A stretch of DNA of 64,000 nt from Amphibalanus amphitrite (lineage: Eukaryota): NCBI RefSeq assembly GCF_019059575.1, contig NW_024881729.1, forward strand, positions 544,406 through 608,405. The letters run 5' to 3'. A program made the position numbers and the translations under genes. Positions 1,285 through 56,400 of this stretch are shown piece by piece. How positions within the stretch are numbered: the first letter of the stretch is position 1; every line of letters starts with the position of its first letter. A model generated the notes under the pieces. That model made no database searches. It was not told the origin of the DNA and saw nothing but the letters and a program-made list of their open reading frames with translations.

Positions 1285-2497
1285 AATATCCTTCCAGGCG
1301 GTGGGGGTGGGGGGGGGGGGCATTTTTTGCCCCCCCCCTTTAGTTTTTTCGATATATCTCGAGAACCGCTGCGCCGATCGTCACCAAACTTTCAGTACCC
1401 TCCCGGGAGCAGCTAGCGCACATGGTGACCAAATTTTTTTTCCAAAGGCTATGATAGGTTGGCCGCTAATGACGTCAGAGTGACGTCATTTTTGCCATTT
1501 TCGACCCAAAGAAAGGTTTCGCGGGAAGAGCTGTCAGGCCTACAGCTTTAGAGATACCGAAAAATGTTTCAGACATAAAAGGCGTGGAATTAAAAGGGCT
1601 ACAAACTGCTATTTCGGTTTTTAGAATTTTTTGGATTTTGACCCCCAAAAATCAAAAAATAGATTTTTTGAATATAATAGCCAAAAAAATCCAAAAAGTT
1701 TTTTGAATTTCGAAAAAACCGGAATATATGTGATAGCCCCTACCGCCTTCTATCAACATACCAAATTTGAGATCGATACCTCTTTTTTGGCCAAGTTATA
1801 GCGAAAAAACTGTTCAAAATTGATGACGTCAAATTTTCAAACTCAATTTTTAGCAATTCTAGACCTCGTAGAGCAAAACAAAGACCACCATTAGACTCCC
1901 CGTGACGAGCTGCATCGAATCGATACCCATTTTAGGCAAAAATATCAACTTTGAAATTTGACCTTTTTTTGACCTGACCTTGACCTGACCTCCACCAGAA
2001 AGTGACCTAAACCGTACCTGATGGTCTTATAACCAACACCATTGAGTTGGAAATGAAAAAGTGGCCATAAAACATGCATCGCATAACCTTAGTAAAGTTG
2101 GGCTCATGTGGTGACCCTTGGTGACCTTTGGTGACCTGACCTGTGACCTGACCTGGTATGACCAGTGACCTCTAATAGCAACATATTTACTAGAAAACTG
2201 ACGCCTTATCGCTGATTTTCGACAAAATGCGTTTTACTCGGTGTTATAGCGCTTTCCCTAGAAGCCCCGTGAACGGTGAAACATTTTATCTTTGACCTGA
2301 CCTGTGACGTCATCGGTGACCCCGAGGTCAATGAAATTTGGTTTTTTTGACAAATTTGACAGGGCTATCGAACGCCGTTTGAATTTTCCGGATCCGTCCA
2401 GTAGTTTCGGAGATACGGGGGGGGGGGGGCAAAAAAATGCCCCCTCCCCCCCACCGCGCGGAAGGTGGCTGGTAGGCCCACCGCCTGCCGGGATATT
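1285..2497. mobile_element. About 1.2-kb TIR element. Termini are CAATATCC(T/C)..GGCGGTGGGGG followed by a G12-CATTTTTTG-C8 hairpin at each end. Internally it has (GACCTGACC)n tracts and TGACGTCA palindromes, and no ORF
   Basis: The left end 1284-1340 matches the reverse complement of the right end 2415-2498. The right arm carries an internal duplication. No clear target-site duplication. Confidence 0.45.
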
Positions 2498-21779: not shown

Positions 21780-24700
21780 TCGGTAAAGCTGGCGTCACCG
21801 TCGGCGGTAGGTAGGTAGGTTATGTTGTGGGTTCAGTAGGTGGAACTATGGTCATGAGTACCCAAATATAGGAACGTTCCCATTTTTGGGAACGGAGTTC
21901 CCAAATATGGGAACGGGCGTTCCCATTTATGAGAACGGAAGTTAATTTTTCGGCCGTTCGCCCACTAAAACTCATTAGTGCATCACGTCTCAAAAAAGTG
22001 CACGCTAATTTAAGTATCTACTAAGTCGATTCCAGGACAAATCTTCGTATGGCATTTCTTCGTCGCGCAATTCTTCGTCCGCATTTCTTCGTCCGCAAAT
22101 CTTCGTCGGCGCATTTATTCGTGTCGCATAACTTCGTCTCGCATTTCTTAGTAAGCGCAAATATTCGTAGCGCATTTTTTCGTATCCGCATTTCTTCGTA
22201 CGCGCATTTCTTCGTCAAGCATTTTTTCGTCCACGCATTTCTTCGTCTACGCAAATCTTCGTCCGCATTTCTTCGTCCACGCAAATCTTCGTCTGCGCAT
22301 ATCTTCGTCCGCAAATCTTCGTCCCCGCAAATCTTCGTCCGCAAATCTTCGTCCACATTTTTTCGTCCACGCATTTCTTCGTCTACGCAAATCTTCGTCC
22401 GCATTTCTTCGTCCACGCAAATCTTCGTCCCGGCAAATCTTCGTCCGCAAATCTTCGTCCGCAAAACTTCGTCCGCAAATCTTCGTCTGCAAATCTTCGT
22501 CCGCATTTTTCGTCCACGCATTTCTTCGTCCACGCAAATCTTCGTCCGCAAATCTTTGTCTGCGCATATTTTCGTCCGCAAACCTTTGTCTCCGCTATCT
22601 TCGTCTCCGCAAACATTCGTCCACAAATGTGGTTCAATAAAACCATGAAGAAATATCAGACCATCAAGTGATTGACGAATTTAATGCATGGAATGGATGA
22701 TCGAAACTTTTGAAGTCAGGTAGATGAGGTCTGTCAGGTGAAGCTATTGTATTTGGGAGCCGAGAATTGAAACATTCCATATCATTTGTGTCCCGGACAT
22801 TCTTTTTTCGCGGTCGATGAATGACAATACAATCTCTTGTACCCTCGCCGGCATAGGCGGCGGAACGGGGAGGGCACCGGGGCACCGTTCCCCTCTTTAA
22901 TTTGGCCTTTTAACAGTAGCCCTATGGGCGTTGCATGGAAAGAATGGGACTAAAAGTCGGCAGTGCCAAGCCCCCCCCCCCCCCTAATTGAATGTGTTCC
23001 GCCGCTACTGCTCGCCGGACCTATTTGTTTTCTACATATACGCCGGCCGAGGGGGGGGGGGCGGGCACGACCCCCCCCCCCTTCCCCCCATCGCCGTTTC
23101 GCCACTGGTGGAGCTAGCGCGTCGCGGAAAAAAACGAGCGTGTGCGCCGTTACGAGACGCAGAGATTAATACCCGATTTTAAGGCCTTCTAGGTCAGGGG
23201 TCGGCTTACGGCCCGCGGGCCGGATCCGGCCAGGAGGGTGACGGTTCGATCCGGCCCGCGACCATCTGACGTCCGGCCCGCGGCTGGTATCATCGACTTA
23301 CATCGTGTTCCGGCCCGCGGTTCCTTCAGAAATCGACTCCGATATAAAAGTGACTTAAATGTGCTTTGGCACAATAGTTCTTCCTTCGCACACTTCATGA
23401 GTTTATAAACACCATTTGCGGGTGTTTTTGTCTAATTCTACTTCTAGACAAAACTTGCGCGGGCCGGACGTCAGATGGTCGCGGGCCGGATCCAACCGTC
23501 ACCCTCCTGGCCGGATCCGGCCCGCGGGCTGTAAGCCGACCCCTGACCTAGAAGGCCTTAAAATCGGGTATTAACCTCTGCGTCTCGTAACGGCGCACAC
23601 GCTCGTTTTTTCCGCGACGCGCTAGCTCCACCAGTGGCGAAACGGCGATGGGGGGGGGGGGGGTCGTACCCGCCCCCCTCGGCCGGCGTATATGTAGAAA
23701 ACAAATAGGTCCGGCGAGCAGTAGCGGCGGAACACATTCAATTAGGGGGGGGGGGGGCACGGCACTGCCGACTTTTAGTCCCATTCTTTCCATGCAACGC
23801 CCATAGGGCTACTGTTAAAAGGCCAAAATTAAAGAGGGGAACGGTGCCCCGGTGCCCTCCCCGTTCCGCCGCCTATGCCGGCGAGGGTACAAGAGATTGT
23901 ATTGTCATTCATCGACCGCGAAAAAAGAATGTCCGGGACACATGATATGGAATGTTTCAATTCTCGGCTCCCAAATACAATAGCTTCACCGGACAGACCC
24001 CATCTACCTGACTTCAAAAGTTTCGATCATCCATTCCATGCATTAAATTCGTCAATCACTTGATGGTCTGATATTTCTTCATGGTTTTATTGAACCACAT
24101 TTGTGGACGAATGTTTGCGGAGACGAAGATAGCGGAGACAAAGGTTTGCGGACGAAAATATGCGCAGACAAAGATTTGCGGACGAAGATTTGCGTGGACG
24201 AAGAAATGCGTGGACGAAAAATGCGGACGAAGATTTGCGGACGAAGATTTGCGGACGAAGTTTGGCGGACGAAGATTTGCGGACGAAGATTTGCCGGGAC
24301 GAAGATTTGCTGGACGAAGAAATGCGGACGAAGATTTGCGTAGACGAAGAAATGCGTGGACGAAAAAATGCGGACGAAGATTTGCGGACGAAGATTTGCG
24401 GGGACGAAGATTTGCGGACGAAGATATGCGCAGACGAAGATTTGCGTGGACGAAGAAATGCGGACGAAGATTTGCGTAGACGAAGAAATGCGTGGACGAA
24501 AAAATGCTTGACGAAGAAATGCGCGTACGAAGAAATGCGGATACGAAAAAATGCGCTACGAATATTTGCGCTTACGAAGAAATGCGAGACGAAGTTATGC
24601 GACACGAATAAATGCGCCGACGAAGATTTGCGGACGAAGAAATGCGGACGAGGAATTGCGCGACGAAGAATTGCCATACGAAGATTTGTCCGGTTACGTA

Positions 24701-26600
24701 CTAAGTCTCTATAAAATTATCTTTAATCTGACCGTTGCACAAGGAAATTGACCGTCGAATGATATTTTTAATGATTTTTTGAAATGACGGAATGGTGAAA
24801 ACATGGGTTATACTACATTTAACTTGCAATTTTAAGGAAAATGAAGCGTTTTTTACATTTTGAGGTCAAGTACAATAATTTTCGCCTGGTTATGAAGTTT
24901 CATACTAGCGACACCAGATGCTGACATATGCAAGCGAACACGCGGACAGTCCCGAGGTAATATTGTTGACTTTTGGTGTCGGGGCGCACGACCGCGTGGA
25001 ACGTCAGTGATTTTACCGAACTACTGTTGTAAACTCGGTTTCAGTGGTTTAAAATTATTCAGCTGTATTTTATCATCCCGGAAAGACATATTTTATTTGG
25101 ATGCTAGCTGTTAAAGGGACCCTCCCACCTTTAAAAAAGTTTATGAATTGGCATGAAAGTGATGTCGCTCGGTTCAGAAAGAGCGAAAACGAATATCTAC
25201 CAAATTTCACCGAAAAATATTCACCGGTTTTGAAGATATTAGACTTTTACTTTTGTTTACTTTTTGGGATCTCCGCTGTTCCTAGCGACTTTATTTAAAA
25301 GTGCGGCATTTGTTGCGCGCAACGCAGCATATACCACCGCGTGCTACAAAACGTTTTAGTCAAACATTTAACGGACGTTCGAAAGCCTGATGACGTCATC
25401 AGATTTAAGTGCCTATACCAATACATTGTGGCACTTATTTGCACAGATGTCAAAATCAAACTCAAATTTCTTTGCGATGAAGTAATTGCTGGAGAAACGG
25501 TTTTCACGGCACTGATTTTCAAAGAACGTCCATCAAGATGGCTATCTCAACTCAAATCTAATGTTAAGGTGGGACAGTCCCTTTAAGCGTTGTTTTATAA
25601 GGAGCGTCATGAGCGTGATTTTTGTCTTCCGTGTTTCTAAGCACGATCGTTTTGGGGGAATTTCTCTTATATAGGTCGCTTTGTGTGGCTTATTTATAAT
25701 TTTTATGCTGATCTCGATCATTCCTCGTGCCCATCCTACCAGGCCTTTTGCCACTTACACCCATCAAGAAAGGAAAAAACTAGATTTTCATTGGGACTAG
25801 GTGTTTTGAGGGTGTAACATATTCAGCGTTCCCATTTTTGGATACTTCCTTGTGCTCGTCAACTATCGGTGATAAACAGACAGGTGCTTGACATGTCTCC
25901 ACCCTCGGCGCGGACGGTGGATATAGGTATGGAAGACCTTGTTGAACATCGCTGAGCGTTGTGAACTACGTAATCCTGCAGAGGGGGGCGTGCCCGCTGC
26001 GAGATCGACGGGAATAAAAGCGCAGAAGACCGGGCGTAACATGCGACGGTCTTGCCGGAAAGGTCATCTGATGATTGTTGCGTTAACAATAATTTGCGGC
26101 GTTGGACGTGATGCTTGTTAATGAAAAGAGCCCCTGAAAGGCGTCGGTGAAATCGTTCCCAATTTTGGGTACGCCGTTCCCATAATAAGGAACGCTTGCA
26201 GCGCCAGTGTACGAGAGCGTTCCCAAATTTGGGCTCGCGGCCCGGATGATGGACTGCTTTAGAAATAGGGGAACGATTTGAAACTACGATGGGCCTTACA
26301 ATATCAAACTCTTTCCCAACAATATTGGGACAAATATCAGGCGGTTCACGATCGTTTTTTTTTTTTTTTGGACGTCATTTAACGGTTCTTTTTCTTGTTT
26401 TAAATAATGCCTACATGGCGTTCCCATATTTGGGTTTATCGTTCCCAAACATGGGAACGAAAATGCGTTCCCGAAAATGGGTACGCTTGACCATAGTTCC
26501 GCCTACTGGGTTTGTAGGTTGTAGGCTGGTTGGTTCAAAGTGTGTAGGCTGGTAGGTTGTAGGTAAGTAGGTAAGGCTAGGTCAGGTTAGATTATGTGTT
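21780..26600. mobile_element. Candidate larger element enclosing the foldback. Long inverted termini (about 21795-21960 versus 26400-26560) are built from palindromic GTTCCCAnnnnTGGGAAC motifs and carry (GTAGGT)n at the outer ends
   Basis: Left GGGTTCAGTAGGTGGAACTATGGTCATGAGTACCCAAATATAGGAACGTTCCCATTTTTGGGAACG.. matches the reverse complement of right ..CGTTCCCAAACATGGGAACG..GACCATAGTTCCGCCTACTGGGTTTG. More motif copies lie at 25831-25850 and 26140-26235. Confidence 0.4.
22038..24692. mobile_element. Foldback-type element: a 2.65-kb near-perfect palindrome whose arms begin with tandem arrays (about 600 bp) of a degenerate 14-18-bp unit (CTTCGTCCGCAAAT-like), followed by inner unique sequence and a second, smaller palindrome around the centre (about 23190-23560)
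   Basis: The left arm 22038-23390 is the reverse complement of the right arm 23410-24692. The track ORFs 22021..22626 and 24087..24677, and their antisense partners, are simply translations of the arrays. Confidence 0.7.
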
Positions 26601-26625: not shown

Positions 26626-27600
26626 AGCTGTTAGTGGTGATGGTGGGGCTCTGTCCTGGGGCCCTTACTCTTCCTGGTGTATATCAATATTAATAGTGTG
26701 GCGTCCACCCTCAAGTGCCAATACAAAATTTTCACTGACGACCTCAAGATTTACGCATGCGTGAATCATACACGACTGTCTGAGACGCCAGCGGTATCCC
26801 ACCAATGTGTCCAGGATGACATCAACTCACTCCACGACACTGCTCTATCTTGGGGTCTTCATATGAATGTCTCAAAATGTGCAGTCCTTAGTTTTTCTAG
26901 GAGGCGCAATAGCGATGCTCCAGCTTACTTCTTGAATGGCAGAGAAATCCCTCGGGCCAATTCAGCTAAAGATTTGGGAGTCACGGTCGATACTGATTTG
27001 AAATTTCACACCCATATTCAAAACGTGTGCCACAAAGCTGGCGGTCTTGCTCAGAACTTTCTCAGATCAACGGTAAGCCGCTCTCCGGAGTTTATGTTGT
27101 TTTTGCTCAAAACACACATCCGACCTATCTTAGACTATTGTTCAAGCCTTTGGAACACAGGTTACCTGCAGGACCTCCGGCTACTGGAAAGGGTGCAGCG
27201 ACGCTGGACTAAACGGATCTCTGGACTTGAAACTCTCAGTTATGCTAATCGTCTCCAGTCATTGCAATTGTACTCTGTCCAGGGCAGACTGAAGCGGGCC
27301 GATCTTCTCCTGTGCTGGAAAATCTTCCATGGACAGTCCTTCATCTCTCCAGATGATCTTTTCCTTACCACTCCCTTGAACCGCACCAGAGGCCATAGTT
27401 TCAAGATTCATCGCACACACGGTAACACGTCCACCAGACAACGTTTTTTCTCAGTGAGGGTGATTGATACGTGGAACTCGCTGCCAGATTATGTGGTGAA
27501 TGCCCAAAGTATACAGAACTTTAAAAAAATGTTGGATGCCTGCATTCCAGATGTACTGTTTTCTTACGTTGACTGAATCATGCCATGTTGTGACTATGTA
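26626..27600 (+). mobile_element. 5'-truncated LINE fragment (CR1/L2/RTE-like RT C-terminal half)
   Basis: ..LGPLLFLVYIN.., FTDDLKIY, KCAVLSF, LGVTVDTDLKF, LERVQRRWTKRISGL..SYANRL, and a C-terminal WNSLPDYVV..SIQNFKKMLD. Stop at 27576. Confidence 0.7.
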
Positions 27601-31864: not shown

Positions 31865-32301
31865 GTGAGAGCGGCGCCGCGCTGGGTCTTGCACTGGCGG
31901 CATGCTCACAAACAGTATTACAGCCATGGTGTGGGATTTTGGAAATTATAACTAGCTTCGCTATGTTTAACCATTCATAAACAATCAAGTACCCTCACAT
32001 ATTTCGCTTAGCTTGTAAAAATAATTTATTTTGACACTTGACAGTGGTCTGGTCCATATCAGCGACAATCTGTGCCTCTCGCTGATATGCCGTGCCCCCC
32101 CCCCCCCCCCCACACGCACCAACAGTCTTCCCCTCGCCCTCACAGGTAGTCGTTCCTCACAAGCACTGGCGTCGCTGGCTGGCCCGTGTGACTGTCTCCC
32201 CGCGTCTGACTATGCTCCCGCTGTCTCTGCAGGCGATCGTTCTGCAGAAGTACTGGCGTCGTTTGTTGGGCTGTGTGTCTCTCCCACAGACAGGCCCCAA
32301 T

Positions 32302-34073
32302 CCGACGACCAAATCCGACACCTCGGGACGAAGAAGGCGCCAGGACCGGACCGGGTATGCACCGAACACCTGCGGCACTTCGGACCGACGGCCTACCGGA
32401 CCCTTCTGGCACTCATCAACAGATCGTGGTCCAACCTCGAGACGCCCGCCTCATGGCGACGGGCGACCATCATCCCTATCTTTAAGGCCGGCAAAGACCC
32501 CAAACAAGTGGGCAGCTACCGCCCGATCGCGCTCACGAGTCACATCGCCAAGCTAGCGGAGCGGATGATCGCGGCCCGGACGACCTACCTCATCGAGCGA
32601 GACCGACTGGTGCCCCCCGAACAGGTCGGGTTCCGCCGCGGGAGGTCGGCGGAGGACAGTCTGGCCCGCTTGGTCCAAACGGTTCAAGATGGCTGGAATC
32701 GCCCCAAGCCGAGACGAGGCCCGGAGGATGGCGTGACGGCGGACCGCTTTGTCCTCCTGGCGTTCGACTTCTCCCGTGCCTATGACACGATCGATCACCG
32801 GATGTTGCACCTGAAGCTCCTCAAGCTCCTCCCCAGATGTCTCGCGACCTGGAAATTCCGGTTCCTTCGCGGCAGGCGGGCCCGCGTAGAGGTCAACGGC
32901 GCGCACAGCAGCGAGCGCGTGTTCCGCGCGGGCCTGCCGCAGGGCTCGGTCCTGGCACCGACCATCTACACGCTCTGGGCGGCGGACCTTATCGAGACCC
33001 TGCGGAACGCCTCGGACCGCACGGACGTCCTGATGTATGCGGACGACAGGGCCACACTGAGCGCTGGAGCCACCGTAGAGCTTGCGGTGGCTCGCGCCCA
33101 GAAGTCGGCCGACGCCCTGGCCCGATGGGCAAGGCACTGGAAGATGTCCATCGCCGGACAGAAGACCCAGGCGCTGCTGCTGACTCAGCGGAGCAGGGAC
33201 GAGCGCGGCGTGCAACTCCTGGCGAACGGCACGCAGGTCACCGGTGGCACCAGCCTACATCTTCTGGGGGTGACCTTCGACAGACTTCTACACTTTAAAG
33301 ACCACTGCGACTCTCTGCTGCGGCGGAAGGTCCGGCCGCGGACGGCACAGCTGCGGAGGATGACCGGCCGGGCCTGGGGTCTCCGCGAGGCGCAGCTCAG
33401 GACAGTCGCGAACGGGTATGTCCGGGGAGCCCTTGAATACGCAGCGGGTGCCTGGCTCCCGGCCGCGTCCCCGTCACACGTTCAGCTGGTGGAGCGCGAG
33501 CTGCTGGCGGCAGCCCGGGTGGTGACCGGATGCCCAAGGTCCACCCCCAGGGATCCCCTGCTGGCCGAGGCTGGCATCCCTTCAGCATGGTCCACCAGGA
33601 AGACGCTGGCCGCGCGAACGCTCTGCCGAGCGCTCGCCCTGCCGGAGGACGACCCTCTTCGCCGCGTCGCGGAGGCCGACCCACCCACTCGACTGCGGTC
33701 TACCACCGGCTGGCGACAACTGGGGCGATCGGCGCTGATCGAGGCGGGCGCCGAGGGAGTGACGGTGGAGCCGCGCCTCGAGGTTCCCCTCCTCCCGTGG
33801 ACAACCTGCCGCCCGATCGCCTTCAATCTGGACGTGGGACCCGGCGGTCGTCGAGCCTCCTCCAACGAGACGCGACGAGAGGCCGCGCGGCAGCACCTGG
33901 CGGCGCTCCCAGCCCAGGCCACGTGGATTTGGTCCGACGGCTCTGCGGACGCTGGGGTCAGGCGAGGCGAGGGGGCGGCGCCATCATCTTTACCGCGTCG
34001 GGGGAGACTCTCGAGGTTGAGGTGGTGGCGGGAGACCTCTGCTCCAGCACCCGTGCGGAGCTGTTCGCCCTGA
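32302..34073 (+). pseudogene. LINE RT-domain reading frame (frameshifted relative to the downstream RNase H/CCHC part at 33957-34801)
   Basis: The two overlapping track ORFs (680 aa and 423 aa) together cover RT, RNase H and the zinc finger. Confidence 0.6.
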
Positions 34074-34837
34074 GGGCGGCGCTGGAGCGGGTCCGGGATG
34101 AGCCGTCCCCCGCCCCGCTGGTGGCGTGCTCTGACTCACGAGCCGCCCTGAGCCTCCTCAGCGCGGGAGCGGCCGCCCAGACCTCCACTTTCGGCGCGGC
34201 GATCTGGAGGACGCTGCTGGACATTGCCGAGCGCCGGCAGGTGACCCTGCAGTGGGTCCCTGCTCACTGCGGGCTGGCGGAGAACGAGCGCGCTGACGCC
34301 CTGGCCAAGCAAGCGGCCACCCTGCCCCAGGGCGCCGTGCCCTCGGACGCTCGGCCCCTGACACGGGCAGTTCATCGGACGACCACACGTCAGTGGCGCG
34401 AAAACTGGCCCGACTCCTTTTTCAAGGCTATCTTCGGGAGCACCCTGCCGCTCCCCATCCCCGGAGAGGACCGAGAGGCCGCCATCTCGGTGCACCAGTG
34501 GAGGGTGGGCCACTGGGGCCGCTCGCTCCAATACCTGCACCGGATCGGCCGCCACCCCTCCGTGGCATGCCTGCAGTGCCCCGATAAGCGGTGCCCCACG
34601 GCGCTCTGCGCCGTGTGCCGGGAAGAGGCGGACGTGCCGGAGCACGTGTTGCTCCGCTGCCCGGCCCTCGCTGGCGCCCGCCTGCGGCTAACTGGCAGCA
34701 TTCACGTCGACCCGTCGCGGCTGCGGGACGCCGACCTGGTGGCTGCCTTGGAGGCCGGCTACCTTCGCCATAGGGAGCCTCTCGGCTATGGTCCTCCGTA
34801 AGGAGGTCCCAGGGGGAACAACAACAACAACAACAAT
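32302..34837 (+). mobile_element. 5'-truncated non-LTR retrotransposon (LINE) with RT, RNase H and a C-terminal CCHC; I/R1/LOA-type domain order; frameshifted
   Basis: RT motifs KAPGPD, FDFSRAYDTIDH and YADD. The RNase H block (TRAELFALRAALE) is in a different frame after a roughly 1-nt indel near 33960-33980. CCHC is CLQCPDKRCP..C..C. A (CAA)6 tail sits at 34819-34836. A 10-bp target-site duplication AGGCCCCAAT lies at 32292-32301 and 34838-34847. Confidence 0.75.
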
Positions 34838-39404: not shown

Positions 39405-42400
39405 TCAGTTGTCTAGCTCCAGTCGCACGATCTTGGTGACCGGTCGTTTGTACACACCCTTCCGCGTGTTCACCTCCACGACGCGGACGAGGCCGTCCTG
39501 ACCGGGGAACGTTCTGGCGACTCTGCCCAGGGGCCACGAGCCTCGAGGCACCGATGAGTCTGCGATCAGCACCATCTCTCCTTCACGCAGATTGCGTGAC
39601 ATCTCCGTCCACTTCTGTCTTGTCTGAAGACTTGGTAAGTATTCTCTGATCCAGCGCCGCCAGAACTCTGTGTTCAGCTGCTGGAGTCGACGCCACCTTT
39701 TTCTGGCGTTCTCGGGCGTGTCAGCGTCTTCAGAGCAGATATCCAGCTGGGTGTGACCGAGCAGGAACGCTGCCGGGGTGAGCGGTGGCGCATCAGACGG
39801 GTCAGATGAGACCGCGGTCAGTGGCCTGGTGTTCAGAAGCGCCTCCGCGCGGCAGAACGCGGTCATCAGTTCTTCATCTGTCAGATGGGCGGCTTCTAAA
39901 GTTCTTCGTAGTGCCCGCTTCGCACTTTTTACCATCGCCTCGCAGCCACCATTGAAATGAGGCGCTCCCGGAGGAATGAACTTCCAGTCTATGTAGAAGT
40001 GAGCGGTTTGTCTCTTGATCACTTCTTGGTCCAGAGCTCCGACTAGCTTCCGTAGCTCGCGACTTGCTCCAACAAAATTCTTCCCGTTGTCGGAGATGAT
40101 CTCAGACGGCCTCCCTCTTCGAGCGATGAATCTCAGGAATGCTCGCAGAAAACTGTCAGTGTCGAGTCCGCAGGCCATCTCCAGGTGCACCGCTCTACTC
40201 TGTAAGCACAGGAAGACGCAGAGGTAGCGTTTCAGCCGAGTCTTCCCTCTTCCCTGTCTGGTCTCGAACGGTCCTGCGAAGTCCACCGCGCAGTGACTGA
40301 ACGCGCGGCAGGAATACATCACTTCAGCTCCAGTCTTCGGCGCCATCATCTGCTTCTCTGGCTTCTTGGATCTCTTGATGCACTCTGTACAAGATCTGAT
40401 GCATTTCTTGACTTCTTCTCTGGCACTTATCACCCAGAACCGCTGGCGAAGTTCCGATATGGTGTGCTCAACGCCGAGCTCGTGTTCACCCTGCTCATGC
40501 ACATGACGTACCAGGAGACGGGTCACTTGATGGCCCTTTGGGAGAAGCACTGGGTGCTTCACATCAAATGGCAAGTCGCTTCTCTGGAGGCGTCCGCCGA
40601 CTCGCAGTAGTCCATGGTCATCTACAATCGGACACAGTCTGCGGATGCTGCTGCTTTTGAAGACTTGACCCTGTTTGCTTTCACCGGACGGGACTGCGAC
40701 TTGTGCTTCCAGCTGTCTTCGCTCCTTGGCAAAACATTCCTGAGCTCGCAGGAGCCAGAATGTCTCTGCAGAAGACATCTCCCGCCTGTCCAGTGATGAT
40801 GATGTGCCGTCGTTGTGTTCATCTGGGCACTCTCCTCTTGTTAGTCTCTTCAGTTTCTCGATAAACCTTAGAACCCACGCCGTCACCCTGACCAGCCTCA
40901 TCCAGCTTGAGAAGTGACTTGGGTGTAGCCGGAGGTCATCTTGAGTTTCTTTGATCAGAGTGCTGTGTACTGTCTTCGTCTTCTTCATCTCGCTCCTGTC
41001 GAATGGCTCTGATTGTAGATCTCTTGGCATTGGCCAGTTTTCTCGCTCTTCCACAAGAAATGCAGGGCCCGACCACCACAGGTCACTGGACTTCAGAACT
41101 TCCAGTGTTACGCCTCTGCTGGGAAGATCTGCTGGGTTTTGATTTCCGGGAACATGCTGCCATTGCTCAGGATCTGTCACTTCCCGAATCTCTGATATCC
41201 GATGCGCCACGAACGACTGGAACTGCTTGACTTCATTTCTGATCCAACAGAGCACGTTGATGGAGTCAGACCAGAACAGCACATCTGATATCTGGATCCT
41301 GAATGCTGCACAGGCCTTCTTCGCCAGTCGCAGACCCAGGAGGGCAGCCATCAGCTCAAGACGAGGGATGCTGACCTTTCTAGAGCGTGGGGTGACTCTG
41401 ACTCTTGCTAGAGCCAATCTTGCGGCAACGCCATCTTCACTTGTGGTCACGACGTAGACTGCGGCTGCATATGCCTGCTCAGAGGCATCTGAGAAGGCGT
41501 GTAGCTTCTGAGCTGTAGCCTTGGAGAAGGGGTGGATGCATCGGGGCACTAATAAAGAGCTCACGCGCTCCAGCTCCGTCACCCATTCCGCCCACTTGCG
41601 CTTCATGTCGGCGGGCAGCTCATCGTCCCATTGAAGACCTCGGGACCAAGTTTCCTGGAATAGGATCTTGCTTCGGACGGTAAATGGACTCATCAAGCAT
41701 AGAGGATCGAAGATGGCTGCGAGCGTCTTGAGACAGATCCTCTTGGTAGGCTTTGGCGTCATGTTCTTCTGAATGGTAGCATTGCTGCTAATGCTCAGCT
41801 TGTCTTCATCCGCATTCCAAACGACTCCAAGTGCATTGGCACGAGTTTGAGGGCCATCTTCGATAGTGAAACTTGACTCTTTGGCTCGCTCTTCTTCTGG
41901 TATGCTGTCCGTCACTGAGCTGCTACTGCTTCTCCATTTTCTTATCTTCATGCCGGCCAACTGCATCAGCTCTGTGAGTTGCTTTCTGGCTTCCTTCGCT
42001 TCATCTTCACTTTCGAATGAGACGAGGGCATCGTCCATGTAGAACGAGTCCTTGATCGTGTTGGAAGCGAGAGGATATCGTGAAGCGTGCTGCTTGGCAT
42101 TCTCCTTCATCGCGAACTGGGCTGCAAATGGTGCTGCAGCGTTTCCGAACAGCCACCTTTGTGCTTCATAGATATCTGGCTCTCTTCCAGCTTCGCAGTT
42201 GCGCCAGAGCACACGATGGAACTTCTGATCACCATCGGGTAGCTTCACCTGGAGAAACATCTCCGCGACGTCTCCAGTCAGAGCGATCGCATGACGGCGA
42301 AATCCCAGCAGGACTTCTATCAGGTCGTTACAGATGGATGGTCCAGGATAGAGTTCATCGTTCAGACTTCTCCCTTCAAATTTTGCAGCTGCATCGTACA

Positions 42401-44963
42401 CTACCCGTATCTTCGTCGTGGCGCGATCTTCCTTTACTACCGGGAAGTGGGGCAAGAACCAGCCGTCTAAGGATGCAGCCTCTCTATCTTCAGGTACGAT
42501 CTTCTTAAGGTATCCTTTAGATACGTAATCTTCAAAATTCGCATTGTACTTTTCTAGAAGAGACCTGTCTTCATTCTTTATCAGGCTCTGCTCAGTTTTT
42601 CTTAATCGGCTCACAGCGTATCCGAAGTTTCCACTCAACTCGGGCTGATCACGACGCCAAGGTACTGCTACCTCATATCGCTCGCCGTCGTACTTGAGTG
42701 AGTCTTGTGCCTTCTTAAGTGCGGACTTTTCCTCATACGAGAGAATCTTCTCATTCTCGTTTCTCACTCCGAGTAGTTCCAAGTCGGTCATAGCATGGAT
42801 GGCGTCTATTTCATCCTGATTGTTCACTGATACGTGAGTCCGTAGCGTCTTGCTGAAGTTTTTCTTCTTCGCATCTTCCACAGGCCCGAAGGCTGTCCAG
42901 CCGAGCGGGGTTTTCACTCCCACAGGTTCATGTGCTTCGCCTTGTCTTGTCTCCAGAGGAAGGAACAGCGACGTCGTAGAAGCCGTCAGTCCGATCAGCA
43001 TATCGATCCCCTGTCTTCGTGAAACGTTGGGGAAAGATATGTTCTTCAGATGGTTCCACTTGCTCTTCGTCATGTTCCAGTCAATTTTGGCTGAAGCGCT
43101 GGAGAGGTCATTAATGACGTACACGCCAATGCTGGTCTTGAACGGGCCGATTGTGGAACACATTTCCACCTCCGACTTCTTCATGTTCACTTGACTGCTG
43201 CCTTCCACTGTTCCCAGCTCAAACTGCTCTGGAACACCCTGGAGACCCAGCTCCTTAGAAGCGGCGTCCGTCAAGAAACTGGCATCCGAGCATGGATCCA
43301 GCAGGGCGTTGACGATAAGAGATCGTCCATTCGCCTTCACCTTCACGGGAACTGTCTGAAAAACGACGCGGCCTGAGTTCTGAGTCGCTGAAGCAGCGGT
43401 CCGATGAGTTAGCTCCCCTTCATGCTGTTCCTGAACTGGCAGTCTGGCAGTAGTATGACTTTGTGTCATCGCAGGGGTAGAATCACCGCGAGTCGCGTGG
43501 AGAAGACTATGATGGCTGCCACCGCATCCTGCCACTTGACATCCTGGGAACTTCCTGCAGCTTAATCCACGATGAGTGCCAGCCAGACAGCGAAAACATA
43601 TTCGCTTCGTCTTGCAGTAGCTGTACCGGCTGCCGACTGTCCACTTCTGGAACAGTGGGCAATCTGGAAGTTGGTGTTCTTTCTCGCAATAGAGACAGCT
43701 TGATGCCCCATGTTGGCTCTGTCTCTCTGTCTTGGTACTCCAGGTCTTCTTCATTTTCCTGGGAGAGTTCGTCTCTTCCTTCTTCATTCGGGAGCTGCTT
43801 GACATTTCTAGAGCTTCTTGTTCGTATTGGGCTTCTTCTGTGAGCCAGGTGGCGAACATCTTCAGATTGTCCTTCGCTCTTTGTCCTTGGATCCATCTTC
43901 GGTAGTTCTTCAGAAATGTCACATGTAGCTTTTCTTTGACGAGGATGTAGTAGGCGGACACGTCGGCCAAATCGCCTGCTGAGCCATGCTCTTCAAGATT
44001 TGTCACCAGGCTTTGAACCCGATCAGCGAGTTCCTCCAAATCTCTCGTAGCGCCCGGACGGACTGGCCTGATGCTCCGAATCTCCTCCAGCTGATGCCTG
44101 ATCCGTCTGCTGACGCCGCCGTACTTGCGTTCCAGCTCTGCCATGGCCTTCGTGAACCCAATGTCTGACGGTCTGTACCTGTCTACTAGTTTCAGAGCGT
44201 CACCTGCGAGACAGTTCTTGAGTTGCATCATTTTAAATTTTCCAGGAACGTTTTCGATGGTTACAAAGGCGTCAAACGTAGCTCGCCAGTCCTCGTATCT
44301 GTTTGTCTCGCCTGTAAAGACTGGAAGCTGTGGTCTCTTCAGTCCGTAGTTCGCCCAGTCGACCTTCACTCTCTCGTTATCTCGTGGCGACCGAGTGCTG
44401 TGACGTCGACCTTCGACTTCAGGTGAGGCTGCTTGCTCTTCTGGTTGCTGAAGCGCATCAGTTTCTTCAGTGACTGACTGATGCGACTCCGTTTCGTGCC
44501 TCAGGGCCTTCGTCTCGTTGCTACGCTTGTCTAGAGCTGCAGAAACTACAGTTCTCACTGATTTATTTGCCAGCCGCAGAGTCTTGGATATTTCTCGCTG
44601 AATATCGTCGTATTCTTCCCACGGATCTTCATCCTCCTCTTGTCCACTAGACATCTTGTTGGCCATCTCTTCCACTATGTTCAACAACTCATCGCTTGCC
44701 TTGTCTAGCTCAGAACCTATCTGCGAGATCTGCGAGACAGTTAGCTCACTGGTTTCAATCAGTGAATGCAGTCTGTTCTGTCCATCGCGTAGATCCCGAA
44801 GTAGTCTCGACTTCTTTCTTCTTAAATTCACTTCAGTTGTCCTCACATGGCTTTCTGTAGAAGTGGTAGTTGACATTGTCCCTTCAGTTCCATCCGTTAC
44901 TTCTTCTTGATTCTGACTGGTTTCAGCTTCACCTTGCTGCGTCTTCTTGCGCCTGTTACCCAT
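39405..44963 (-). CDS. Gag-Pol polyprotein (1852 aa) of the BEL/Pao element
   Basis: Uninterrupted ORF with diagnostic motifs: PQLPVFTGE..W..F..F (Gag DUF1759), CLYCEKEHQLPDC, LLDPCSDASF (protease), FYMDDALV (RT), DASEQAYAAAVY (RNase H), and H..H..C..C plus DFAGP..E (integrase). Confidence 0.85.
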   Translation of the reverse strand: MGNRRKKTQQGEAETSQNQEEVTDGTEGTMSTTTSTESHVRTTEVNLRRKKSRLLRDLRDGQNRLHSLIETSELTVSQISQIGSELDKASDELLNIVEEMANKMSSGQEEDEDPWEEYDDIQREISKTLRLANKSVRTVVSAALDKRSNETKALRHETESHQSVTEETDALQQPEEQAASPEVEGRRHSTRSPRDNERVKVDWANYGLKRPQLPVFTGETNRYEDWRATFDAFVTIENVPGKFKMMQLKNCLAGDALKLVDRYRPSDIGFTKAMAELERKYGGVSRRIRHQLEEIRSIRPVRPGATRDLEELADRVQSLVTNLEEHGSAGDLADVSAYYILVKEKLHVTFLKNYRRWIQGQRAKDNLKMFATWLTEEAQYEQEALEMSSSSRMKKEETNSPRKMKKTWSTKTERQSQHGASSCLYCEKEHQLPDCPLFQKWTVGSRYSYCKTKRICFRCLAGTHRGLSCRKFPGCQVAGCGGSHHSLLHATRGDSTPAMTQSHTTARLPVQEQHEGELTHRTAASATQNSGRVVFQTVPVKVKANGRSLIVNALLDPCSDASFLTDAASKELGLQGVPEQFELGTVEGSSQVNMKKSEVEMCSTIGPFKTSIGVYVINDLSSASAKIDWNMTKSKWNHLKNISFPNVSRRQGIDMLIGLTASTTSLFLPLETRQGEAHEPVGVKTPLGWTAFGPVEDAKKKNFSKTLRTHVSVNNQDEIDAIHAMTDLELLGVRNENEKILSYEEKSALKKAQDSLKYDGERYEVAVPWRRDQPELSGNFGYAVSRLRKTEQSLIKNEDRSLLEKYNANFEDYVSKGYLKKIVPEDREAASLDGWFLPHFPVVKEDRATTKIRVVYDAAAKFEGRSLNDELYPGPSICNDLIEVLLGFRRHAIALTGDVAEMFLQVKLPDGDQKFHRVLWRNCEAGREPDIYEAQRWLFGNAAAPFAAQFAMKENAKQHASRYPLASNTIKDSFYMDDALVSFESEDEAKEARKQLTELMQLAGMKIRKWRSSSSSVTDSIPEEERAKESSFTIEDGPQTRANALGVVWNADEDKLSISSNATIQKNMTPKPTKRICLKTLAAIFDPLCLMSPFTVRSKILFQETWSRGLQWDDELPADMKRKWAEWVTELERVSSLLVPRCIHPFSKATAQKLHAFSDASEQAYAAAVYVVTTSEDGVAARLALARVRVTPRSRKVSIPRLELMAALLGLRLAKKACAAFRIQISDVLFWSDSINVLCWIRNEVKQFQSFVAHRISEIREVTDPEQWQHVPGNQNPADLPSRGVTLEVLKSSDLWWSGPAFLVEERENWPMPRDLQSEPFDRSEMKKTKTVHSTLIKETQDDLRLHPSHFSSWMRLVRVTAWVLRFIEKLKRLTRGECPDEHNDGTSSSLDRREMSSAETFWLLRAQECFAKERRQLEAQVAVPSGESKQGQVFKSSSIRRLCPIVDDHGLLRVGGRLQRSDLPFDVKHPVLLPKGHQVTRLLVRHVHEQGEHELGVEHTISELRQRFWVISAREEVKKCIRSCTECIKRSKKPEKQMMAPKTGAEVMYSCRAFSHCAVDFAGPFETRQGRGKTRLKRYLCVFLCLQSRAVHLEMACGLDTDSFLRAFLRFIARRGRPSEIISDNGKNFVGASRELRKLVGALDQEVIKRQTAHFYIDWKFIPPGAPHFNGGCEAMVKSAKRALRRTLEAAHLTDEELMTAFCRAEALLNTRPLTAVSSDPSDAPPLTPAAFLLGHTQLDICSEDADTPENARKRWRRLQQLNTEFWRRWIREYLPSLQTRQKWTEMSRNLREGEMVLIADSSVPRGSWPLGRVARTFPGQDGLVRVVEVNTRKGVYKRPVTKIVRLELDN

Positions 44964-46518: not shown

Positions 46519-47438
46519 TTAACCCTCGCCCGCACATGCCATTTTCCCATCCTAGAACGCACATGGGGGGGGGGGGGTGGTTGCCACCCCCCCGCGCCAT
46601 TTCGTTCCTGTTGGAGATAGAGCTTAGCAGTAAAGACCAAAAAGATTCTTTGGGAAGAGACGAATCCAATGATACCCAGTTATACCTTCTCAGGTCAGTC
46701 ATTGACCTTCCAGGTCAGGTCAAACTAAAAAATGTTGCTGTTTTGGGTCACCGTTGGATATCAAGTGTGCTGCTTATCAAATACCGATGACGATGCTGTT
46801 TTCTGGTGCCAAGCCAGCTAGAACCTCTTTGTCACACTACCCGACCAGAATTTTGCTGCTGAGGTCATTTCAGGTCAAGTTAGGTCAAGGTCAATTATAT
46901 GTGTTTGTATGTCTGTGTGTGTCTGTGTGTATACTGATGTGTGCACCGATTGTTTTTGGGTCCATATTACATAAAATCATGATCTGAGAAGCTTTTACCA
47001 AAAATGCAGTCAAAAAACTTCAAAAAAAGTAAATTCAGCTTGCCTAAAACGCAATTATCTTAGGTGACCTAGGTTGACCTTGACCCTGACCTTGACCCCT
47101 GTACATCGTCGAACAACATGTTCCATGATAGGTAGGAGGTAAGACTGGCAAAAAAGGCCGAAATCAGGGTGTCAAAAGCTCATAAGGCCCATGGCAAACG
47201 CAAGATGTTGAGAATTGGCCATTTGGGTCATGACATGACCTGAAAAACAAGGTCATATCTCCGAAACCAAAAATCACAGAAACTTGAAATTTTCAGTGGA
47301 CATCAAGAAAGAATAGAGGAGCAGCTATACCAAAAATCAGCCTTCTAGCTCTAAAAATGTTGAGTGCAGAGCAGAAAGACTACCTGGGGGGGGGGGGTGG
47401 CAACCACCCCCCCCCCCCCATGTGCGGGCGAGGGTTAA
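46519..47438. mobile_element. piggyBac-like nonautonomous element (about 920 bp) flanked by TTAA. TIR CCCTCGCCCGCACATG, with a subterminal G12-TGGTTGCCAC-C8 hairpin at each end and internal (GACCT/GGTCA)n tracts
   Basis: Left TTAA|CCCTCGCCCGCACATG.., right ..CATGTGCGGGCGAGGG|TTAA. The G-run/C-run hairpins are at 46561-46600 and 47386-47420. It lies in an intron of the 4-TM gene. Confidence 0.6.
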
Positions 47439-52235: not shown

Positions 52236-53150
52236 AGCATGCAAATTTGATGCAAGCTCTTCGCCGACGACACGAAGATTTACCGTCGGATGGTGGGCAA
52301 CCGGGATGACGTGGGCCTGCAAGCCGATATCGATGCGCTTGGTGAGTGGTCTCGGAAATGGATGCTTCCGCTCAATGTCGCGAAATGCAAGGTAATGCAC
52401 ACTGGCCATCACCATCCAAACCTGACCTACACGCTGCACGGTACCCCGATTGAAGCGAGCGACGAGGAAAAGGACCTTGGGATCGTGATCGACAGCGACC
52501 TGAACTTCAAGAAACAGGCATCAGCGGCCGTGTCAAAAGCTCGTCAAACCCTGGCTGTACTGAGACGCTCTTTTGCGAACATCAACGAGTCCACGCTACC
52601 ATTGCTTTTTAATGCTATGGTCAGGCCGTTGTTGGAATACGGTAACACGATATGGGGACCATTCAGTACCTATAGGCAGCCAGAAGAGGCTGGAACGAGT
52701 TCAGCGCCGGGCGACCCGAATGGTCTCGTCCGTGAGACACTTGCCATATCGAGAAAGACTACATAGCCTCGGAATGCCTTCACTGTTCTGCCGCCGCCGC
52801 CGAAGAGATATGATCACCGCGTACCAGCTGTTGCACGGAGGCATGGCGCTGACACCGGAGAAGTTTCTGACATTGAACGAGTCTGACCGGACAAGAGGAC
52901 ACAGATGGAAGCTGGGCAAACCACATGCTAGAAAACTTGTGAGCAGAAACTCCTTTAGTATCAGAATAGTCAACGACTGGAACACACTTCCAGACTCTGT
53001 GGTGTCAGCGACGTCGGTGAACCAATTCAAGGCGCGACTGGACAAACTCTGGAAGAACAAGATGTATGACATCCCTTTACCCTAAGAGTCCAGTATGTAC
53101 ATCCTCACGAGCTTGATGAGAGCGGGATCCTCAGGCCAAGTGGCCTTCTT
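52236..53150 (+). mobile_element. 5'-truncated LINE fragment from the same or a related family as 26626-27600; frameshifted near 52690
   Basis: FADDTKIY, KCKVMHTG, LGIVIDSDLNFK, LERVQRRATRMVS..YRERL, and WNTLPDSVV..SVNQFKARLD. Flanked by (GGTAGGTA)-type microsatellites at 52196-52225 and 53166-53190. Confidence 0.7.
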
Positions 53151-55859: not shown

Positions 55860-56400
55860 CAAAAATTTATTGATTGGACCAGGGGGTGTTCACGGGCACC
55901 GCAAACTGCTGAGGGCGGTGTGTGCGGTGTGTGCAGCAGGCGTGGGGGTAAGGGATGGGTAGGCGGTTCTGACGTCACGGCTGCGTTCGGTGGACGGTCC
56001 CCTGTGGCCGGTCCCGAGGGCTGTTCACGGGCCCTGTGTGCGATCGGACCGTACACAGCCTCCAAGCTCCGCCCACTGCGTCCCTGCATCAGCTTTCCGT
56101 CACCGCACACAGCGACCGCTGTGGCCGGTCAGGACTGGCCACAGCGGACTGTCACCGCACGCAGCCGTGACGTCAGAACAGAACCGCCTACCCATCCCCT
56201 ACCCCCACGCCTGCTGCACACACCGCACACACCTCCCTCAGCAGTTTGCAGTTCCCATGAACACCCCTCCGTGTTCCGACCGACCACAGCGGTCGCTGTG
56301 TGCGGTGACGGAGGGATGACGTAGGGACGCGGTGGGCGGAGTTTGGAGGCTGTGTACGATCCGACCGCACAGAGGACCCGTGAACAGCTCTCAGTAATAT
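55860..56400. repeat. Composite palindromic repeat (segments X-Y followed by rc(X)-rc(Y)); a related single copy lies at 54240-54470
   Basis: 55880-55980 is the reverse complement of 56160-56260, and 55990-56135 is the reverse complement of 56275-56400. 54250-54470 shares CCGTCACC(A/G)CACACAGC(A/G)ACCGCTGTGG..CTACCCATCCCCTA..CACCTGCTGCACACACCG. Confidence 0.6.

Follow-up and report, generated by a model that had tools for sequence, protein, structure and literature searches.

We analyzed a 64,000-nucleotide stretch of Amphibalanus amphitrite DNA (contig NW_024881729.1, positions 544,406 to 608,405 of the forward strand), referred to here as the window, in which a 912-bp element lies between TTAA flanks at positions 46523 to 47434. 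With its flanks (46519 to 47438), it belongs to a dispersed repeat whose boundaries are fixed, which has TTAA on its sides, and whose asymmetric ends are conserved, and in our judgment it very probably is a nonautonomous member of the piggyBac superfamily that resembles a miniature inverted-repeat transposable element (MITE) and was inserted at TTAA. An earlier note on this DNA had described a TTAA-flanked, piggyBac-like nonautonomous element, and this description held: copies with the same boundaries were found, the tips read CCCT...GGG, the ends were asymmetric, and there was no coding capacity.

The element was delimited by a perfect inverted repeat, in which TTAA and the adjoining 16-bp terminal inverted repeat (TIR) CCCTCGCCCGCACATG matched at 20 of 20 positions. 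The element tips were 5'-CCCT...AGGG-3', and bp 9 to 16 of the outer TIR consisted of the box CGCACATG. In the whole window, the exact 16-mer was restricted to the two ends of the element, and with up to three mismatches allowed there were six matches against 0.71 expected. The inverted repeat stopped at TTAA, beyond which the left flank (...cttgac) and the reverse-complemented right flank (...gtgccgg) differed. Termini with TTAA outside the TIR on both sides, as the earlier note had claimed, were indeed observed.

Copies were reached by searching with the translated element, making use of the spurious open reading frames (ORFs) that gene callers predict across such elements. The left-end ORF was searched, profile-free, against 1.84 billion cluster representatives, among which it had 42 matches. 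The contigs carrying copies came from Tara and marine-biofilm metagenomes and are given L-numbers, which denote ENA metagenome contigs. A full-length copy, 96.5% identical over exactly 46519 to 47438, was found at an unrelated locus in L137 with TTAA on both sides. The similarity stopped exactly at TTAA on each side, which answered the concern that the element might continue past these ends. Left ends with four further different flanks were found in L138, L139, L140, and L141, each starting with TTAA followed directly by CCCTCGCCCGCAC, so that the search for other TTAA-TIR ends proposed in the earlier note was positive as well. The family of the window element is labeled F1, and sister families with the same end layout (F2 to F5) are described below. 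L003, L004, and L005 represented one locus in three samples, with two partial F1 copies arranged head-to-head (e.g., L004 422-1979) that were approximately 86% identical to the window copy. Both outer ends of this composite were of the short type (TIR plus palindrome, without the 27-nt insert described below); one was flanked externally by TTAA or TGAA, and the opposite one by TTAC or ATAC. In L006, an F1 left end was joined to an F2-like body. Copy identity thus ranged from 86 to 96.5%, and the older copies (L003 to L006) carried TTAA or the one-off variants TGAA, TTAC, and ATAC.

At the protein level, 29 of the translated matches spanned the tip, and in 23 of these [F/L/I/V]-N preceded PRPH. 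This corresponds to xT? AAY CCx, which fits TTAA, and the upstream peptides were all different. A match of the translated end to P0067 (2,245 amino acids [aa]) was discarded as a false positive, the protein being a bacterial fn3/FG-GAP protein. A scan of JGI metagenome DNA for the TIR plus the G-run gave 0 matches, and a scan of the same data for the bare 16-mer TIR gave 120 loci, of which 0 had TTAA, the G-run, or the spacer, indicating chance matches in GC-rich DNA. Two scans of IMG/VR yielded 10 chance matches and 0 matches, respectively.

The two ends of the element were organized differently (Table 1). The short end consisted of the 16-bp TIR and a palindrome made of a G-run, a core, and a C-run, with a spacer of 0 nt between them, whereas the long end consisted of the TIR, an 11-nt linker, a degenerate second TIR, and then the palindrome. 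The intervening 27 nt (CCATTTTCCCATCCTAGAACGCACATG, 46539-46565) ended in a repeat of CGCACATG, and this box was therefore found at bp 9 to 16 and again at bp 36 to 43 of the long end, an exact 27-bp shift. The symmetry of the ends implied by the earlier note was thus not observed, since the left palindrome lies 27 nt from the TIR and the right one adjoins it. The 27-nt register, equivalent to nine codons, was kept in 27 diverged translated copies, and in 21 of these 27 an ATG/CTG variant at the end of the repeat was the same in the outer and inner copies. Across 41 translated copies, the best-conserved columns were those of the TIR (highest), the inner repeat, and the G-run.

Table 1. Features of the window element (F1) and of the related element F5, in window coordinates
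Feature	Position	Strand	Supporting observation
TTAA flank, left (putative target-site duplication)	46519..46522	.	same TTAA before tip in copies L137 to L141
Outer 16-bp TIR CCCTCGCCCGCACATG, long end	46523..46538	+	exact match to 47419-47434 on minus strand
11-nt linker CCATTTTCCCA, long end only	46539..46549	+	linker and inner repeat together form the 27-nt register preserved in 27 diverged copies
Inner degenerate TIR copy TCCTAGAACGCACATG, 12/16 match	46550..46565	+	CGCACATG recurs exactly 27 nt downstream of the first
Palindrome G12-TGGTTGCCA-C7, long end (putative internal inverted repeat)	46566..46593	.	motif scan; fold -17.4 kcal/mol
Non-coding body	46594..47385	.	no ORF >93 aa; 13 AGGTCA/TGACCT hexamers; (TG/TCTG)n stretch near 46900-46940
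Palindrome G12-TGGCAACCA-C12, short end (putative internal inverted repeat)	47386..47418	.	motif scan; fold -21.8 kcal/mol
16-bp TIR CATGTGCGGGCGAGGG, short end	47419..47434	-	exact reverse complement of CCCTCGCCCGCACATG
TTAA flank, right (putative target-site duplication)	47435..47438	.	copy L137 likewise ends GGG then TTAA, with a different flank
Related element F5, same architecture	1286..2496	.	27-nt shift between outer and inner TIR; AGCCACCTTC junction identical to F2 (L002)
F5 ATAT flanks	1286-1289 and 2493-2496		
F5 short-end TIR CCTTCCAGGCGGTGGG	1290-1305		
F5 short-end palindrome	1309-1338		
F5 long-end palindrome	2417-2452		
F5 long-end inner TIR	2450-2465		
F5 long-end 11-nt linker	2466-2476		
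F5 long-end outer TIR	2477-2492		
F5 body			15 AGGTCA/TGACCT, 4 TGACGTCA

The hallmarks of piggyBac elements are a TIR of 12 to 19 bp, a CC[C/T]T tip, and duplication of TTAA (PMC2872659). In agreement with these, the element has a perfect 16-bp TIR with CCCT...GGG tips, and TTAA was present on both sides of the window copy and of L137. The asymmetric ends support membership rather than define it, as this layout is one described for piggyBac itself and not for every member of the superfamily. The element is non-coding, has TIRs, and occurs in multiple copies, as do MITEs, its 912 bp being at the large end of the MITE size. Two TTAA-specific superfamilies of eukaryotic DNA transposons have been described, piggyBac and Kolobok, and a nonautonomous Kolobok-superfamily element like the T2 MITEs was therefore considered. 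T2 MITEs are abundant in Xenopus and many other animals and share with the window element the TTAA-specific 4-bp duplication, TTAA being present on both flanks here, and an element probably of the Kolobok type occurs in the same genome. However, Kolobok termini are RR...YY (PMC6004289), or AGGRR in T2 MITEs (PMC9587614), whereas those of the window element are CCCT...AGGG (CC...GG), and the asymmetric arrangement of TIR and palindrome matches that of piggyBac, leaving membership in Kolobok very improbable. The probable Kolobok-type MITE is a 476-bp element at 25111-25586, with TTAA and AGGGACCCTCCCAC at one end (tip AGGGAC after TTAA) and GTGGGACAGTCCCT and TTAA at the other, an AGGR tip next to TTAA being the Kolobok/T2-MITE signature. 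A similar element, in which TTAA is followed by AGGTAGAGTGTCTA, was found at L002 10104-10913.

TTAA contains TA, and one copy alone cannot distinguish insertion at TTAA from that of a MITE of the Tc1/mariner or pogo type that duplicates TA and has a TIR starting ACCC, for which the outer T and A would be coincidental. At the DNA level, though, the full TTAA was present at six of seven intact left ends and on either side of the L137 copy and of families F2 and F4, T occupied the outermost position in 23 of the 29 translated copies, and the subterminal architecture was piggyBac-like. Because the full TTAA was so consistent, duplication of TA only is unlikely, and an origin from either of these groups was considered extremely improbable. 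PIF/Harbinger elements generate a 3-bp TWA target-site duplication. Read in this way, the flanks would be TAA (or TTA) on the left and TTA (or TAA) on the right, and the TWA reading was rejected because these are not direct repeats; direct-repeat flanks were obtained only under the 4-bp TTAA or the 2-bp TA reading.

The arrangement of the ends was compared with that of piggyBac from Trichoplusia ni, in the ends of which (LE35 and RE63) a 13-bp TIR is followed by a palindromic internal repeat of 19 bp, with 3 bp between the two at the left end (LE) and 31 bp at the right end (RE). A box at bp 7 to 16 recurs at RE bp 34 to 43, and RE bp 34 to 63 are almost identical to LE bp 7 to 35, giving a 27-bp shift. 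In cryo-electron microscopy structures, the transposase core holds the first 16 bp and a dimer of the CRD sits on the palindrome at bp 17 to 33 (PMC5861402; PMC7351741). Similarly, piggyBat (Myotis lucifugus) has a core-bound motif at bp 11 to 16 followed by a palindrome that is bound by a dimer of the C-terminal domain (PMC11707139). The window element resembles T. ni piggyBac in its TTAA target, its CCCT tip, and a tip of approximately 13 to 16 bp followed by a palindromic internal repeat, as well as in having one short end and another that contains an insertion and a duplicated inner tip, so that the internal repeat is displaced by 27 to 28 bp. The two differ in that sequence similarity is limited to CCCT, the internal repeat is 19 bp and A/T-centered in piggyBac and 22 to 34 bp with a G-run, core, and C-run of variable arms here, the spacers are 3 and 31 bp there and 0 and 27 bp here, and the element here is non-coding. 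The bp 11 to 16 core motif of piggyBat lies 3 bp from an imperfect palindrome and its ends are also asymmetric, but the palindrome is repeated three times on one end and absent from the other, whereas here there is one per end (PMC11707139).

Regarding the palindromes themselves, the G8-N10-C7 pattern was found in the window as three pairs of sites (1309/2417, 23051/23650, and 46565/47386), with 0.00 expected in shuffles. The left G-run of the window element can be read as G12 or G13, and the runs were always oriented G...C and never C...G. Among near-identical copies the G-run varied from G5 to G13. Between families the cores differed (TGGTTGCCA, CACATATGTG, CCGATTCGG, GCATTTTTTGC, and GCAAAGGGC) and the G/C arms were common to all. 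Single-strand folds of the left and right palindromes gave z = -2.6 and -3.5, respectively. The earlier note had placed a hairpin just inside each TIR, and palindromes were present at both ends, although only the right one adjoins its TIR directly. It had further proposed a very stable hairpin or G-quadruplex; stable single-strand folds were predicted, while a quadruplex role found no support, a single G12-13 run beside a complementary C-run being a poor quadruplex candidate. Additional G-run/C-run palindromes were observed in related contigs (G8-CGTTAAACG-C11 at L142 12833-12860 and G7-CAGAATCTG-C7 at L137 1642-1664), and these probably are ends of further families of the same group.

Because the end layout matches that of published piggyBac ends, we read the palindromes as transposase-binding sites; most likely they are the internal inverted repeats of a piggyBac-type end and putative duplex sites for the C-terminal domain of the transposase. 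Alternatively, in a piggyBac-type MITE, they may act as DNA structures (cruciforms, hairpins, or G-quadruplexes on the G-rich strand) with possible roles in marking the ends, stalling replication, or promoting excision. Consistent with this, the predicted single-strand hairpins were very stable (-12 to -22 kcal/mol, with z down to -4.3), the sharing of arms by families with different cores suggests that the role of the arms is structural rather than sequence specific, and the G...C orientation was the only one seen. On the other hand, run length varied widely between near-identical copies, a lone G12-13 run near a complementary C-run favors a duplex or hairpin over a three-tetrad quadruplex, and the palindromes follow immediately after bp 16, exactly where piggyBac and piggyBat have their CRD-bound palindromes. 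We therefore regard a structural role as rather unlikely overall and infer that the palindromes serve as duplex protein-binding sites rather than extruded hairpins.

By analogy with the published piggyBac and piggyBat structures, and given the anatomy of the ends, mobilization would involve a DDD transposase of the piggyBac type, the gene for which would lie at another place in the genome. At each end, bp 1 to 16 would be bound by the catalytic and DNA-binding core of this enzyme, the CGCACATG box at bp 9 to 16 being the core-bound motif, and a dimer of the enzyme's C-terminal DNA-binding domain would bind the adjacent palindrome of G-run, family-specific core (TGGTTGCCA in F1), and C-run. The single TIR-plus-palindrome unit at one end, as opposed to the extra tip and 11-nt linker before a degenerate unit at the other, would provide a 27-bp left/right asymmetry for synapsis, and both excision and integration would occur at TTAA. 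For piggyBac, the asymmetry is needed for synapsis in cells and has been called enigmatic in the structural papers.

The element at 1290-2492 of the window (F5) was found to have the same design. Its short end consists of CCTTCCAGGCGGTGGG and a palindrome, and its long end of CCCGGCAGGCGGTGGG, an 11-nt linker, CCTTCCGCGCGGTGGG, and a palindrome, the palindromes being G12-CATTTTTTG-C9 and G13-CAAAAAAATG-C5TC7. The 10-nt junction between linker and inner TIR, AGCCACCTTC, was identical to that of F2 in a related genome. The earlier note had reported analogous hairpins at both ends of an unrelated TIR element at 1285-2497 and had called a hairpin module shared by two families unusual. Both hairpin-forming palindromes were confirmed, but the 27-nt architecture, the junction in common with F2, and the same clusters of AGGTCA/TGACCT, together with the F1 left end joined to an F2-like body in L006, indicated that this element is related to F1, and because the families are related, a shared subterminal module is to be expected. 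The same end layout was seen throughout F2 to F5, in line with the suggestion that G/C-run hairpins might occur near the TIRs of other families. F2 (L002 11875-13560, tip CCCGCGCACGGCC) and F4 (L002 14618-15834) were each flanked by TTAA on both sides, with shifts of 27 and 31 nt, respectively. F3 (L002 12635-13202, tip CCCTATTACTGGTGG), which was nested in F2, had a 26-nt shift with TTAA on the right and AGGT on the left, suggesting a rearranged or imprecise insertion. A comparison of L002 with L006 for the empty site of this nested copy gave 65% identity, at which the junction could not be placed. A search with the ORFs of the 1285-2497 element recovered no further copies, and the ends and target of F5 therefore rest on one copy, in which either ATAT may be a noncanonical target or the TIR may be six bases longer (CAATATCC). 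Because the tip-to-palindrome distance is 16 bp in the sister families, the sequence favors the reading with ATAT flanks.

Poly-G runs are a known artifact of two-color sequencing chemistry, and the possibility was considered that the window element is not mobile and arose either by local inverted duplication or as an artifact of poly-G/poly-C tracts in sequencing or assembly. In favor of this, similar motifs occur in a near-perfect palindrome of 2.7 kb elsewhere in the window (22020-24706). Nevertheless, at least eight independent contigs, obtained from different samples and assemblies, carried copies with identical boundaries and different flanks, and the probability of this explanation appears negligible. 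The arms of the 2.7-kb palindrome are 97 to 99% complementary and contain tandem sub-repeats. Its interior includes CCCTCGCCGGCATAGG termini (22842/23887) that agree with the F1 TIR in 13 of 16 positions and are flanked by GTA/TAC, not TTAA, and approximately 210 nt inward of these are G11-CGGGCACGA-C11 palindromes at 23051 and 23650. Possible explanations for this structure are a foldback-type element, inverted duplication of one transposon end together with its flank, and an assembly artifact.

Several observations weigh against the assignment of the window element to piggyBac or against parts of the model of its ends. A piggyBac transposase query (the T. ni protein, confirmed by a 240-bit match to Pfam PF13843, DDE_Tnp_1_7) gave no tblastn match in the 64-kb window or in approximately 60 kb of related contigs, and the autonomous partner and its C-terminal domain are hypothetical. 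The palindromes of piggyBac and piggyBat are A/T-rich at the center and bend when bound by the CRD; the G/C homopolymer arms differ from this, and for this reason the binding-site analogy may be incomplete. The agreement between outer and inner variants may mean just two subfamilies, possibly a single event. As for the target, the related element at 1290-2492 was flanked by ATAT on both sides instead of TTAA, some F1 copies were flanked by TGAA, TTAC, or ATAC, and the translated copies, which fix only three of the four TTAA bases, are from metagenome contigs that possibly span several species. No empty site was found in a search with the flanking exons, and the JGI and IMG/VR DNA scans gave only chance matches. 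We infer that TTAA was duplicated on insertion, and TTAA, being self-complementary, could formally belong to the inverted repeat.

The 46519-47438 element contained no ORF longer than 93 aa. AGGTCA/TGACCT hexamers were strongly enriched, with 13 in 46523-47434 (0.44 expected) and 15 in 1290-2492 (0.56 expected), giving densities of 7 to 14 per kb in the elements compared with 0.65 per kb elsewhere in the window. Similar densities were observed in L002 11879-13556 (F2), L002 14622-15830 (F4), and L006 1007-2081, and the clusters were present in families the bodies of which are no longer alignable. A perfect TGACCT-tcc-AGGTCA palindrome at 46703-46717 (element bp 181 to 195) was among the better-conserved internal blocks, and the LPGQVK block of the translated body was conserved. 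Palindromes of TGACGTCA were found in two families, with four in 1290-2492. Both kinds of motif resemble known regulatory sites, namely nuclear-receptor half-sites (AGGTCA/TGACCT) and CRE sites (TGACGTCA), and could be extra transposase sites or sites for host transcription factors. The sequence flanking the window element contained short GC-rich, transmembrane-like exons on the minus strand, and because it sits between these, the element is probably intronic in a minus-strand gene. The window as a whole was eukaryotic and animal-like in content, and Rfam and tRNA scans of it found nothing.

A close parallel among marine invertebrates is provided by the piggyBac-like CMITEs of Acropora corals (Wang et al. 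2010, PMC2872659). These MITEs are flanked by TTAA, have CC[C/T]T tips, and form several families with different TIRs and related internal sequence in tandem or composite arrangements. The counterparts here are F1 to F5, in which the TIRs differ and the end layout, linker motifs, and AGGTCA clusters are common to the families, and the head-to-head composite of L003 to L005. The Acropora CMITEs measure approximately 100 bp, of which 75 bp form a conserved core, and G/C-run palindromes were not described for them, whereas the present elements measure 0.6 to 1.7 kb and share mainly their subterminal architecture.

The window contained several other repeats. An uninterrupted 1,852-aa BEL/Pao polyprotein with protease, reverse transcriptase, integrase, DUF1759, and DUF5641 was encoded on the minus strand at 39405-44963. 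Its closest named relative was from the sponge Sycon ciliatum (36% identity), with 78% identity found on the Tara metagenome contig L001, and from its sequence it looks like a young, possibly active long terminal repeat retrotransposon. Remains of a GC-rich non-long-terminal-repeat retrotransposon with reverse transcriptase and RNase H ORFs were found at 32031-34801, and further reverse transcriptase fragments at 26677-27576 and 52290-53085. A perfect 94-nt inverted repeat (18002-18095/21517-21610, arms 3.4 kb apart) and a cluster of 89- to 120-nt inverted repeats at 55883-56392 probably represent other TIR elements.

TTAA-flanked piggyBac MITEs are common in animals, and the window element itself is a well-built, essentially ordinary mobile element that, as a piggyBac-type MITE, is otherwise of an already known kind. 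What is noteworthy is the anatomy of its ends, in which the layout of insect piggyBac and its 27-bp asymmetry are reproduced in a distant lineage without sequence similarity, and the same layout is shown by several sister families with different tips and cores. Such naturally diverged ends could help to show which feature is essential: the spacing, the duplication of the inner tip, or the palindrome. At landing sites, the G/C arms and the AGGTCA/TGACCT clusters could affect DNA structure or host gene regulation. As a tentative and, on balance, doubtful extension, these elements may represent a radiation of piggyBac-type MITEs in marine animals, comprising at least five families across at least two genomes, in which the site for the C-terminal domain is a palindrome of G-run, core, and C-run, the 27-bp asymmetry has been retained almost to the base pair, and the 1290-2492 family may target ATAT. 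If this were true, the enigmatic asymmetry of piggyBac ends would be a trait of the superfamily that is both ancient and selected, and the families would constitute a natural series of variants for testing end asymmetry.

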